NCBI GenBank assembly: GCA_964016885.1
Contig: CAXHJY010001346.1
Location: 1 to 21,430, forward strand
Source of the DNA: Eledone cirrhosa
Lineage: Eukaryota
Direction of reading: 5' to 3'
DNA: 21,430 nt
The notes under the pieces are model-generated. The model was not told the DNA's origin, searched no databases, and saw only the letters and a list, made by a program, of their open reading frames with translations. How positions within the stretch are numbered: position 1 is the stretch's first letter; the number at the start of each line of letters is the position of its first letter. The translations under genes and the position numbers were made by a program. Below are positions 466 to 15,887 of the stretch, in pieces.

Positions 466-1640
466 TAAATATATATATATATATATATATATATATATAT
501 ATACACACAAACACACACACACACATATATATATATATATATATATATATATACATACATATACAAACATACACATACGTTCACAGACCTATACATAAAT
601 ATACACATATATATACAGACATATAACGCATATATACACACACATATACATATATATATATATATATATATATATACATATACATATATATATATACACA
701 CACACGCGCATACACACATACACACACATACACACATATATACATACATACATACATACACATACACATACATATACACATATATATACACACATATATA
801 CACACACATACATATATATATATATATATATATACATATATATATATACACATATATATATATATACATATACACACATATACACATACACATACATATA
901 TATATATATATATATACACACACACACATACATATATATACACACAAATACACATATACATACATATACACACACACACATACACACATATACATATATA
1001 CATACAAATACACACACACACACATATATATATATATATATACACACCTGCCCACACAACCATATACATATATATATACATATATATATATATATATATA
1101 TATATATATATACACACACACACACACGCACACACATACATACATACACACACACACATACATATATATATATATATATATATATATATATATATATATA
1201 CATATATATATATATATATACACATATATATATACACACATACATACATATACATATATACACATATATATATATACACATATATATATATATATATATA
1301 TATATATATACACATACATACATATACACATACACATACATATACACACACATACATACGCACATACACATACATATACATAAACATACATACACATACA
1401 TACATGCATACATACATACATACATACACATATATACACACACATATATATATATATATATATATATATATATACATATACATATACACAAATATATACA
1501 TACATATACATACATAAATATACACACATAAAACACATATACACACAAACATATATATATACATATATATATATATATATATATATAGACACACATACAT
1601 ACACATATACACATATACAAACAAATATATACACATACAA
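281..1640. repeat. Compound (CA)n/(TA)n/(CATA)n microsatellite
   Basis: Direct inspection. Confidence 0.97.
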
Positions 1641-1764
1641 GTAAATAGGTACTCAATAAATATACGCATATACGCAGGCACATAAAGACACCTCTACAGG
1701 CAGAAAATGTAGATACGAAAGAGGTACTCACATAACCATAGTGGCCGTATTTCAGGTTGAGGAG

Positions 1765-1783
1765 GGGTGGGGGTAGGGTGGGG
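1765..1783 (+). other. Potential G-quadruplex in the PLE 3' region (antisense/cDNA strand)
   Basis: GGGG-T-GGGGG-TA-GGG-T-GGGG: four runs of at least 3 G with 1-2 nt loops; more G runs extend to 1811. Motif only. Confidence 0.55.
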
Positions 1784-1817
1784 AGGAGGTATAGGGGCCA
1801 ATAGGGGGAGGTCGTTT

Positions 1818-3521
1818 TTAGCCATCGGGCTTTAACACTGGCTTAAAGTGTTTGAATGTTGCAAAGTTCTTGTGCATGCAGTTCGGGCAGTGTTCAGAGA
1901 GTTTGTTCAGTAGCGGGCCCTTGGCGAATAAAATTTCGTAGCTCTCTGAAATACAAAGGTCGCAGCCCTTGTGTCCTCCGTTGTAAGAGCGCGCTTTCTG
2001 GAGTATTTTCCAATTAAGCGTGAAGGGGGTGGAGTTCCTTTTGAGGTCCCAAAGGTAGAAGGCGAGTGTTGTCTGATTTGATTTATCCGGTCTTCTGAAG
2101 GAGTGGGTATGGGCATACCAACGGGTCTTAAAGCTGTTGGAGGTCATTCCGATGTAAGTTTTTTTGCAATCCTCGGTGCCTGAGATGACATCGCATTTGT
2201 ATACGATGTCATTTGTGAGGCATTTGTTTTCTAGTGGGCATGCTTCCTTATTTAAGCAATTACATAGAGCCCCAGTCCGGGGATTGGTTTCGGAGGTGGT
2301 TGGCTTATTTAGTTTAGAGTTGTGGTTGGCTATATTCCTAGCTAGGTTAGGTGTGGTGGAGTAAGACAGTCTTATAGTGTTCTTATTAAAGATGGTGTAG
2401 TACCTATGTTGTATGGGGAAGTGTAATTTCAGTAAAGTGAAGAAAATCCTAGCTATCGGAGTAGATACCTCTCTATTGAAGGGAGGTTTGTACCAGCTAA
2501 TCTGCCTATGTCTATTCCTCCTCTGCAATTTTGCGGTGGTTTCTAGGTAAGTTATCTTATCTTTAAAACCGCTACGGGCTAGGGCGTCATTGTAGTAGGA
2601 GGCAGAAGCATTAAAAATATCTTTGTTGGCGGAGAGGCCAGATATTCTAATAGATACGCTTTTTACTAGGTTATCAGTTATGTTTTGGGGGTGGTTTGAA
2701 TTAACATTAATATATTTAAGGGACTCGTTAGGTTAGTGGTACGGGTAATAGAGGGAAGTATCTAGGTCGAGAGTGACATCTAAGAAGTTGGTCCTAGTCA
2801 AATTAGAATCTATAGTTATACTAAATCCTAGATTAGAGAAGAAAGAGCTTAAGTTTTTCCGAAACCCATCGGTGGTTCTGGGGCTAACCTCATGCAGGGC
2901 GAAGAGGCCGTCGTCTCGGTATAAACCTCCAGTTAGGCCGGTAAAGAGGTTCTTCAGGTTATGTAGGATGTACAGGCCCACAAGGTCGCTAATTTCAGCC
3001 GAGTCACTCGCCCCCATGCTAACGTCAAATGGGGTCTGAGATTTCTTGTTGATCCAGTAAGATCCATCGTGGTATAGAAAGGTCTTACGAGCGTGGAGGA
3101 TAATAACTTGCTCAGCATCGGTAATGGTGGTAAAATTCCTGGCAAAGTTAATTGCGTCCTTCAGGAGGGGCTCCGAGATAGAGGCATAGTAGTTTTCTAT
3201 GTCGAGTTGCAGGAAGCGAGTGTGGTGTTTATCGGGTAATTCTTGGAACCATGATATTGCCTCAGATGTTCTACTCCAGAGTGGAAGTGGTGAGGCTGCC
3301 CGCAATGATGGTAGAACTCTATCCAGGATCTTCTTACTGATAGAGCCGATGTCAGAACGAGTGGGGTTGATAAGTCTGACTGATGGTTTGTTGAGGAAAT
3401 TTCCCTTATGGTCATTCAGGGTAAAGTGCGGGGTCTTTACCCTTAAAGATTCGGTTCGGTCATGTAATTTAAGGGACTTGGCGATTTCTTTTCCAGCCGC
3501 GTTTGTCTCAGTCAGCAGAGA
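1818..3521 (-). pseudogene. Penelope-like element ORF (reverse transcriptase + Zn-knuckle linker + GIY-YIG endonuclease), Naiad-like; 5'-truncated, one premature TAA at 2733-2735
   Basis: Manual translation shows tracked ORFs 2733-3305 and 1818-2528 are in the same frame, separated only by TAA (YYPYH*PNESLKYINVNSNHP). The frame stays open upstream to ~3521 (TLNDHKGNF..RLINPTRSDIGSISKKILD). RT motifs: FLQLDIENYYASI, DVSMGASDSAEISDLVG, GLYRDDGL, NFLDVTLDL. Linker CNCLNKEACPLENKC (CxCx5Cx5C). Endonuclease: IVYKC..TYIGMTSNSFKTRWYAH, CDLCISE, LLNK. Clade assignment is from recalled motif patterns, not a search. Confidence 0.93.
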
Positions 3522-3547
3522 GTGTGTATATATATTTTGTCTGTGGG

Positions 3548-4018
3548 TGTGTGTATGTGTGTATGCGCGTGTGTGTGTATATATATATATGTATATGTAT
3601 ATATATATATATATATATATATATGTATATGTATATGTGTGTGTATATATGCGTTATATGTCTGTATATATATGTGTATATTTATGTATAGGTCTGTGAA
3701 CGTATGTGTATGTTTGTATATGTATGGATATATATATATATGTATATATATATATATATATATATATATATATATATATATATGTGTATATATATATATA
3801 TATATGTGTGCATATGTGTGTGTGTATGGATATTTATACATATGTATACTCGTGTTTGTATGTATGCGTGTGAGTGTATTTATTTGTGTATATATGTGTG
3901 TGTGTGTGTGTGTATGTATGTGTATGTGTGTGTGTATCTGTGTGTATATGTATATATATATATATATATATATATGTGTGTGTGTGTGTTTGTGTGTATA
4001 TATATATATATATATATA
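3548..4018 (+). repeat. Inverted duplication of the PLE 3' terminal segment
   Basis: GCGTTATATGTCTGTATATATATGTGTATATTTATGTATAGGTCTGTGAACGTATGTG (from 3651) is the reverse complement of the diagnostic stretch at ~572-629; 3728-3960 has no counterpart in the left copy. Confidence 0.85.
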
Positions 4019-14007: not shown

Positions 14008-14089
14008 ACTCCAACTAATTAGTTTCTGCAATGGGATAAAGACAGTTACGTAATTCAACTGTCGAGAATTCATTGCGTCATCAGGAAGT
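14008..14089 (-). ncRNA. Type I hammerhead ribozyme with extended helix II, copy 1
   Basis: Minus strand: ACTTC-CTGATGA-C-GCAATG..GACAGTT-(9 nt)-AACTGTC..CATTGC-A-GAAA-CTAATTAG-TT-GGAGT. Helix I ACTTC/GGAGT plus distal ACTTAA/TTAAGT; palindromic helix III ACTAATTAGT; GUU site. Confidence 0.78.
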
Positions 14090-14566
14090 CTATTCTCAGT
14101 TAAGTCTCCAGGCAATGCGCGGACACTGGCGGCTCATATAAAAATAATAATAATTCGGTAGATCGAACAGCTTGCGAGGACTGGATTCTATGTACCGAAA
14201 TTCTCACTGCTTCAAGTCAAATGGCCGATTCTAAAGAATCAATCACGTGACACAGAGGCTAGTTAGAAGGAATGGGATGGTAAGATGACTGACGCCTACT
14301 AACACCCCAAAAAAAAATTTTTTTTAGAAGTGGTTTTGACAAGTTTGCTCGACAAATCAGTGATTTGGAGATAAATATAGATAATTTAATATATCAACTA
14401 ACATAAACGCACAGATGCACGCCCATGCCAGCAAATACACAGGTTATGTCATAGTACCTAGGTGGTTCAATGCAGGAGAATGCAGAACAATAATATAAAG
14501 GACGTAAAATAAGAAAATATTTTTTTTTTAAAATTTAAAAAAAATTTTTTTCTTACTTAAATTTTC

Positions 14567-14648
14567 ACTCCAACTAATTAGTTTCTGCAATGGGATAAAG
14601 ACAGTTACGTAATCCAACTGTCGAGAATTCATTGCGTCATCAGGAAGT
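14567..14648 (-). ncRNA. Hammerhead with extended helix II, copy 2
   Basis: Same motif; one substitution in the apical loop relative to copy 1. Confidence 0.78.
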
Positions 14649-15124
14649 CTATTCTCAGTTAAGTCTCCAGGCAATGCGCGGACACTGGCGGCTCATATAA
14701 AAATAATAATAATTCGGTAGATCGAACAGCTTGCGAGGACTGGATTCTATGTACCGAAATTCTCACTGCTTCAAGTCAAATGGCCGATTCTAAAGAATCA
14801 ATCACGTGACACAGAGGCTAGTTAGAAGGAATGGGATGGTAAGATGACTGACGCCTACTAACACCCCAAAAAAAATTTTTTTTTTAGAAGTGGTTTTGAC
14901 AAGTTTGCTCGACAAATCAGTGATTTGGAGATAAATATAGATAATTTAATATATCAACTAACATAAGCGCACAGATGCACGCCCATGCCAGCAAATACAC
15001 AGGTTATGTCATAGTACCTAGGTGGTTCAATGCAGGAGAATGCAGAACAATAATATAAAGGACGTAAAATAAGAAAATATTTTTTTAAAAAATTTAAAAA
15101 AAATTTTTTCTTACTTAAATTTTC

Positions 15125-15206
15125 ACTCCAACTAATTAGTTTCTGCAATGGGATAAAGACAGTTACGTAATCCAACTGTCGAGAATTCATTGCGTCATCA
15201 GGAAGT
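15125..15206 (-). ncRNA. Hammerhead with extended helix II, copy 3
   Basis: Same motif as copy 2; a fourth copy (15689-15735) is truncated. Confidence 0.78.
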
Positions 15207-15735
15207 CTATTCTCAGTTAAGTCTCCAGGCAATGCGCGGACACTGGCGGCTCATATAAAAATAATAATAATTCGGTAGATCGAACAGCTTGCGAGGACTG
15301 GATTCTATGTACCGAAATTCTCACTGCTTCAAGTCAAATGGCCGATTCTAAAGAATCAATCACGTGACACAGAGGCTAGTTAGAAGGAATGGGATGGTAA
15401 GATGACTGACGCCTACTAACACCCCAAAAAAAAATTTTTTTTTTTTTAGAAGTGGTTTTGACAAGTTTGCTCGACAAATCAGTGATTTGGAGATAAATAT
15501 AGATAATTTAATATATCAACTAACATAAGCGCACAGATGCACGCCCATGCCAGCAAATACACAGGTTATGTCATAGTACCTAGGTGGTTCAATGCAGGAG
15601 AATGCAGAACAATAATATAAAGGACGTAAAATAAGAAAATATTTTTTTAAAAAAATTTAAAAAAAATTTTTTTCTTACTTAAATTTTCACTCCAACTAAT
15701 TAGTTTCTGCAATGGGATAAAGACAGTTACGTAAT

Positions 15736-15887
15736 AAAAAAATATTTTCTTATTTTACGTCCTTTATATTATTGTTCTGCATTCTCCTGCATTGAACCAC
15801 CTAGGTACTATGACATAACCTGTGTATTTGCTGGCATGGGCGTGCATCTGTGCGCTTATGTTAGTTGATATATTAAATTATCTATAT
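15736..15887 (+). repeat. Inverted ~150-bp fragment of the 560-bp unit
   Basis: Reverse complement of ~15497-15648; runs into (TA)n. Confidence 0.93.

Follow-up and report, generated by a model that had tools for sequence, protein, structure and literature searches.

The analysis covered a 21,430-nucleotide stretch of Eledone cirrhosa DNA (assembly GCA_964016885.1, contig CAXHJY010001346.1, positions 1 to 21,430 of the forward strand, read 5′ to 3′; hereafter the window), which is AT-rich and of which about one third (7059 of 21430 bases) consists of perfect TA runs. Besides the window itself, four public sequencing runs, metagenome relatives of its encoded protein and published papers were drawn on. 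Four structures, each composed of two mirror-image arms, were located in or next to this TA-rich DNA in the assembly sequence: a Penelope-like element (PLE), a short fragment with half a hammerhead ribozyme motif, and two tandem arrays with hammerhead-bearing units of 310 and 560 bp. Sense strands were assigned from the open reading frame (ORF) for the PLE and from the hammerhead motifs for the repeats. On this assignment an inverted, 5′-truncated copy adjoins the 5′ end in all four cases, and the polarity is head-to-head throughout, the 5′ ends meeting centrally and the 3′ ends running outward into the flanks, an outcome with a chance of 1/16 under random inversion. Head-to-head polarity is the geometry needed for two cDNAs primed from opposite strands, one by the top strand of the left flank and one by the bottom strand of the right flank. 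The inverted pieces had been reported at the same coordinates by a first-pass annotation of this DNA, whose wording that they lie on the 5′ side of each element is equivalent to the head-to-head statement. Target-site duplications are unreadable in the TA flanks; the PLE has a target deletion instead.

The Penelope-like element and its empty site

The PLE ORF (1818..3521, minus strand) was characterized by translation, homologs, alignment and motifs. Reverse transcriptase (RT) and GIY-YIG nuclease, the latter C-terminal, lie in a single frame, as in the Hydra clade, and the frame is broken by an in-frame stop at 2733-2735 and truncated at its 5′ end, with the loss of approximately 140 N-terminal residues. 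The homologs numbered 675 at about 38–55% identity, the named ones being from marine invertebrates. With the clade motifs taken as defined in section 11 of PMC8557442, the ORF was found to contain the CxCX5C linker and the CxxC and CxH motifs around a conserved E and N, and to lack CCHH, and this arrangement is invariant in the homolog alignment; the RWK and DKT motifs fall in the missing N-terminal part and are present in the aligned homologs. Pfam searches with the two halves of the ORF returned no family at E 0.001, GIY-YIG being matched only weakly at E 0.014, below its cut-off.

The 3′ region of the element (466..1817, minus strand) comprises about 180 nt of unique sequence followed by a 1.2-kb TG/TA microsatellite. 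The inverted arm (3548..4018, plus strand) is a second copy of the 3′ end: it matches approximately 466-735 in inversion, of its 134 unique 25-mers that have an inverted partner, 130 find it within 400-799, and it is about 190 nt longer internally than 466-735. An origin for the linker between ORF and arm (3520-3547) was sought, and low-complexity matches only were obtained.

An empty-site paralog of the insertion lies at 6285..6400 (minus strand) and consists of a TA tract of about 27 nt followed by 32–33 bp that are missing from the filled copy. The left junction of the PLE falls in the TA tract, and the inverted arm joins at TATA 32–33 bp away, so that one end lies in a short TA tract and 32–33 bp were lost at the other, with a 4-nt TATA join. 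Insertion into (TA)n, as is characteristic of Hydra-clade PLEs, was thus found for this copy, and the earlier placement of the PLE inside (TA)n holds for its left junction and fails for its right end, which is not in the target (TA)n of the paralog. Any PLE ‘tail’ at the element ends is hidden in TA. Because the empty site lacks the PLE, the microsatellite 3′ region and the inverted arm, all three arrived as one insertion; because the flanks are collinear with the paralog, a chimeric read is an improbable source of the inversion.

Hammerhead repeats, their outer ends and neighbouring sequences

The left arm of the 310 array (8479..10399, minus strand) contains 6.2 units with 6 hammerheads and the right arm (10399..13184, plus strand) 9.0 units with 9 hammerheads; the arms are 99–100% identical in inversion (8479/8488-10399 against 10399-13184). 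The 560 array is made of a main arm (13938..15735, minus strand) with 3.2 units of 558–563 bp and 3 hammerheads, and an inverted arm (15736..15887, plus strand) that matches 15497-15648 in inversion at 152 of 152 positions. The arms of both arrays meet with an overlap of about 1 nt. The tandem units are non-coding, and our own pattern scan finds a complete type I hammerhead in each: in the 310 unit (15 copies) stem II has U.U at its base and helix III is a minimal palindrome, and in the 560 unit (3 copies) stem II is long. On these predicted ribozymes and the unit structure, both arrays are classed as non-LTR (long terminal repeat) retrozyme-type repeats. Among the best 150 of 203 Rfam matches there was no hammerhead, all of them being matches to microRNA models below gathering score and nearly all on microsatellite. 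A folded circle was predicted for the units (z −4.6 and −3.1 relative to mononucleotide shuffles). Two metagenome loci with PLE relatives (L015 and L047) have, about 180 nt after the ORF, a hammerhead whose helix III has the 8-nt palindrome of the 560 unit.

The 310 unit was found in 20 public runs from 16 studies with 17 organism codes. In run X1, which may not be from the individual of the window, it forms a dispersed multi-copy family (629 contigs, summed depth about 5 × 10⁵, several flanks), compared with one closed contig of 340 nt at depth 10 and 34 in the other-organism runs X5 and X9. Horizontal transfer of the unit was considered and rejected, these low-depth contigs being read as probable carry-over between libraries. 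None of the 24 runs listed was an RNA run, which carries no weight either way on expression.

The fragment has an inverted arm (8091..8129, minus strand) that is the reverse complement of 8170-8208 at 39 of 39 positions and merges at its 3′ end into TA, a 10-nt snap-back (8129..8138) that is the reverse complement of 8146-8155 at the base of a predicted stem II, and a main arm (8139..8370, plus strand). Motif comparison of the main arm gave GAAA, a palindromic helix III and a predicted cut after 8161, which suggest the strand and an identity as a type I hammerhead's 3′ half; the other half, with CUGANGA, is absent. The fragment, earlier listed as a hammerhead element alongside the arrays, is consequently a single partial copy and not a retrozyme member. 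Where its main arm starts, at the predicted stem-II base, the sequence folds back over 6 extra nucleotides, as if a cDNA had primed itself, and the snap-back resembles the junction palindromes described for bdelloid Penelopes (PMC3846280).

Outer ends were expressed as distances from the predicted ribozyme cut. They lie at +130/139 (left) and +167 (right) in the 310 array, at about +77 (main arm) and +195 (inverted arm) in the 560 array, and at +47 and +209 in the fragment, so that none of the six ends of the three repeats coincides with a cut site. Priming therefore did not take place at the terminus of a monomer produced by self-cleavage, in agreement with the internal initiation observed for purified PLE protein (PMC11167929). 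The two ends of the 310 array are offset by 28–37 nt, matching the 30–40-nt PLE tail. Loose ends of the 310 family in run X1, in the 6 of 33 rows that were listed, included at least 10 contigs ending at +139 into (AT)n, the best supported class, a single contig that passes into TA at +170, a variant (6 contigs) whose end was read as lying near +171, and one 5′ start after TA at +101.

The overlap in TA between element end and flank is 5 nt at 8091, 13938 and 15887, 8 nt behind one mismatch at 8479-8488, and none at 13184. Against a null of random ends, which ignores later slippage trimming, a 5-nt overlap is reached with P of about 0.02–0.03 per end, and at three or more of five ends with P 1.5e-4. 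The earlier claim that the outer ends merge into (TA)n is therefore borne out at 8091, 13938, 15887 and, behind the mismatch, 8488, together with the exception it made of 13184; it does not extend to the right end of the PLE. Microhomology-assisted priming, also proposed earlier, is plausible with the overlap above chance, but it was not required at 13184, and in the one in vitro study of a PLE synthesis began at RNA sites without homology to the cut DNA (PMC11167929). TA overlap is expected from later slippage trimming as well as from priming by pairing, and so does not single out priming.

The long TA tracts lie at 7005..8090 (interruptions changing from C-type to G-type near 7260), between the two arrays at 13185..13937, and beside the 560 array at 15888..20893 (5 kb, with a C-to-G switch near 16940), the last being followed by unique sequence at 20894-21430. 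The tract between the arrays includes a 34-nt unique segment (13218-13251) with two small hairpins at a switch of microsatellite polarity near 13235. The G-type repeats beside 8091 and 8488 resemble a reiterated element-end motif and could be given by telomerase-like reiteration, to which the other ends do not conform; a rule tying C/G polarity to element ends was tried and proved inconsistent.

The host of the PLE insertion is a large inverted repeat (span 1..6733) with arms at 1-4916, interrupted by the PLE, and 5422-6733, which runs off the left edge of the window. Its inner arms are identical (0 substitutions in 875 aligned bases near the centre) and its outer part is about 1% diverged (4 of 381 outside the PLE). 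Following the right arm is a further type I hammerhead (6944..7004, plus strand, core 6956-6994), which lies 10–20 nt before the 7005..8090 tract, has a U.U stem-II base and has a stretch of 28 alignment columns in common with the hammerhead of the 310 unit. The large inverted repeat, with its right arm leading to this hammerhead, may be a fifth, older head-to-head element; if the hammerhead gives the sense of the repeat, the head-to-head tally is five of five. A decayed direct repeat (27-nt match, 93%) was noted upstream of the hammerhead at 6560-6900.

Candidate enzymes and alternative explanations

We consider, with a probability of about 0.7, that all four structures were made by a PLE-type enzyme through a double nick in TA-rich DNA, two internal primings and head-to-head joining. 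From the observed geometry, end positions, empty site and clade motifs we infer which enzyme acted, on what form of template and in which order, as follows. The PLE RT/endonuclease would use as templates both its own RNA and, in trans, retrozyme RNAs with hammerheads, its nuclease nicking both strands in or near (TA)n. Each 3′-OH would prime at an internal RNA site downstream of the ribozyme and not at the cut, often assisted by TA pairing over 5–8 nt; on a circular or multimeric template each cDNA would span several units, and the two cDNAs would be joined at their 3′ ends through a 0–1-nt overlap or after a short snap-back. The mobilization of hammerhead RNAs by a PLE with priming on both strands, as envisaged by the first-pass annotation, gains from the polarity in four of four structures, the TA target, the ends away from the cut and the offset of about 30 nt in the 310 array, and keeps its conditional standing.

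A Hydra-clade PLE is the best candidate for the enzyme on the basis of three features, target, neighbour and style of hammerhead, that are not exclusive to it, and this attribution is given slightly less than even odds. Almost all Hydra families insert in (TA)n (PMC8557442); Naiads likewise prefer (TA)n, and Naiad or Neptune PLEs may be alternative enzymes. The U.U base of stem II, common to the 310 and 6956 hammerheads, is present in 14 of 25 listed Hydra families, as counted by eye, and in 12 of 21 hammerheads behind Hydra-like ORFs of metagenome loci. A first metagenome scan for relatives of the PLE protein had returned none, and an alignment-based scan gave 79 loci; a hammerhead was found in 21 of the 42 evaluable relatives by a strict pattern scan. 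Six of the 79 loci carry, upstream and in inversion, a further copy of the locus's ORF or 3′ region; as such a copy may stem from a separate insertion, these loci were kept out of the supporting evidence.

Several results weigh against this reading. The same strict scan found no hammerhead in 466-1817 behind the ORF of the window's PLE, where a typical clade member would have one, and no likeness was found between the PLE 3′ region and any of the repeats beyond low-complexity matches. The U.U base also occurs in an axolotl retrozyme and is not Hydra-specific. The tail offset fits one repeat of three, the values for the 560 array and the fragment being 118 and 162 nt, and only three of the six ends lie within 30–153 nt of the cut, the range of 23 of 24 Hydra families. 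The loose ends at +139 have a median length of 12 letters and could in part have arisen by expansion of the TA run within the unit. The structures come from one locus in one assembly, and the junctions were checked in its sequence. A strand-changing joint was absent from the 629 contigs of run X1, in which the window's own 310 junction was also unseen; the two joints listed there do not change strand, and contigs drop rare variants and single-copy links, so that this is a mild negative.

The 5′ truncation, the in-frame stop and the missing hammerhead together mean that this PLE copy is not the present mobilizer. Its predicted protein is of Hydra type, but the copy is not a complete typical member of the clade. 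The description ‘autonomous’ does not apply to it, and the accompanying caution that this particular PLE had not been shown to be the mobilizer was well placed, the copy being dead.

One circular retrozyme RNA held on a dimeric, TA-targeting PLE enzyme, with two primings about 30 nt apart, rolling synthesis of 6 and 9 turns and head-to-head joining, is a possible but doubtful course of events. We give a similarly tentative place to a course, compatible with PLE-type insertion, in which the PLE machinery made short two-armed stumps and the arrays grew later by unequal exchange and arm-to-arm conversion; array length would then say nothing about circular RNA. Such growth agrees with the local amplification suggested in bioRxiv 10.64898/2026.07.22.740005 and with the distribution of variants in the 310 array, in which the innermost units keep T at 11131, C at 11141 and G at 11199, the majority bases in runs X1, X5 and X9, and 13 outer units of both arms share one different haplotype. 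That outer haplotype, however, is the same in both arms and reaches to about 100–125 nt from both outer ends, as expected if the cDNAs began on one RNA. One reading of the pattern is that both cDNAs were begun on one uncommon RNA (circle or multimer) and changed template late; the other is a later, incomplete homogenization of short arms. Junction-near bases of the family majority were noted at 10126-10256 and 10505-10520, with a 2-nt duplication where the right arm changes state.

It is improbable that a long interspersed nuclear element (LINE, non-LTR) enzyme moved the repeats, that the inversions are products of L1-style twin priming and that the PLE is merely a neighbour in the TA habitat. 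Some LINEs prime via short 3′ repeats, which counts for this explanation, and in the arrays a split of one multimeric RNA is indistinguishable from duplication, the right arm of the 310 array starting at +174, 35 nt past the end of the left arm. Twin priming on a single RNA, judged from start and end positions, gave a near-fit for both arrays, but the fit is post hoc and weak. Insertions with 5′ inversion are a known L1 class, whereas for Alu and SVA, both mobilized in trans, it is reported to be rare (PMC2912911). Furthermore, the sequence has no poly(A) tails, the inverted arm of the fragment duplicates main-arm sequence, which is unexpected from twin priming on a linear monomer, and the type I hammerheads and the 30-nt offset indicate PLEs.

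Equally improbable is DNA fold-back repair at the fragile long (TA)n after insertion, with slippage trimming the ends to internal TATAT motifs. The share of perfect TA runs in the window, the large inverted repeat and the microsatellite polarity switches are all suited to this explanation, and trimming would also yield the TA overlap at the ends; it offers no reason for head-to-head polarity in four of four, no inverted arm extends beyond its element, the 310 array is bordered on either side by sequence of G-type in the top strand, so that its flanks are not mirrored, and the PLE arms and target deletion map to one event. Least probable of all are assembly or library artefacts (fold-back chimeric reads), which the identity of the inner arms of the large repeat over 875 bases and the lack of any examined read or contig spanning a junction would allow, but against which the arms differ by a 190-nt indel, private substitutions and end points, the flanks are unmirrored and the PLE flanks are collinear with the empty paralog.

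Relation to known elements

An adjacent inverted, 5′-truncated copy and a 30–40-nt tail at one end are described marks of PLEs (PMC8557442), and head-to-head copies with junction palindromes have been described for PLEs as well (PMC3846280). The PLE of the window resembles the Hydra clade (Craig et al. 2021, PMC8557442) in the combination of RT and GIY-YIG, in CxCX5C, CxxC and CxH without CCHH and in the TA target, and resembles the clade member Penelope-13_HM in being truncated and bearing an inverted copy at the 5′ end. It differs from the clade, as far as the available part of that source describes it, in lacking the 3′ hammerhead there called universal, in its 1.2-kb microsatellite 3′ region and in the 32–33-bp target loss.

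The arrays are similar to animal non-LTR retrozymes (Cervera and de la Pena 2020, PMC7229834; Li et al. 2026, bioRxiv 10.64898/2026.07.22.740005) in being made of tandem units that are non-coding, a few hundred bp long and low in GC, each with a single type I hammerhead and a predicted folded circle. Retrozymes have been described as head-to-tail arrays, and the available portions of these descriptions report no inverted arm, tail offset or TA targeting; for the arrays here, cleavage and circles are predictions from sequence. A link between PLEs and retrozymes has already been proposed (PMC7229834; PMC7761336; bioRxiv 10.64898/2026.07.22.740005) from co-occurrence and pseudo-LTR (pLTR) homology.

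In vitro, the purified PLE protein of Poseidon PAc (Frangieh et al. 2024, PMC11167929) cleaves an AT-rich target on both strands, extends both and starts at two internal RNA sites downstream of the hammerhead that are spaced one tail apart, ribozyme cleavage being dispensable, all of which is in line with the window. In contrast to PAc, whose starts are non-homologous to the target, three to four of the five measurable ends here overlap the TA flank, and PAc was assayed on its own linear RNA and not on a non-coding multimer or circle. Mobilization in trans, insertions in multiple head-to-tail copies and an inverted pLTR with junction palindromes are likenesses to Chlamys MRC1 (PMC8557442) and Adineta Penelope (PMC3846280), which, according to the available parts of these sources, share 3′ or pLTR sequence with an autonomous partner, whereas no partner sequence is visible in the window.

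Inverted 5′ copies, tails and TA targeting of PLEs are thus known, as are tandem hammerhead repeats as retrozymes. Inverted-arm or tail scars on retrozyme arrays were not found in the literature, which was judged mostly by titles and abstract openings and whose supplements may bear on this; in the main text of bioRxiv 10.64898/2026.07.22.740005 the words ‘tail’ and ‘junction’ are absent and ‘inverted’ occurs only in a reference title.

Should the PLE's own inversion alone hold up, there would be nothing unusual in the finding. Insertion scars are more direct evidence than co-occurrence or pLTR likeness on which enzyme inserts animal hammerhead circles. The 310 family predicts two start sites, at +139 and about +167–171, with a (TA)n target, which are testable in the existing in vitro PLE assay. 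PLE-type insertion, if true, would explain the rise of palindromic satellite arrays within microsatellites, and if the one-step double rolling synthesis were also true, retrozyme arrays would be born as palindromes, a footprint of the entry of hammerhead circles into genomes.

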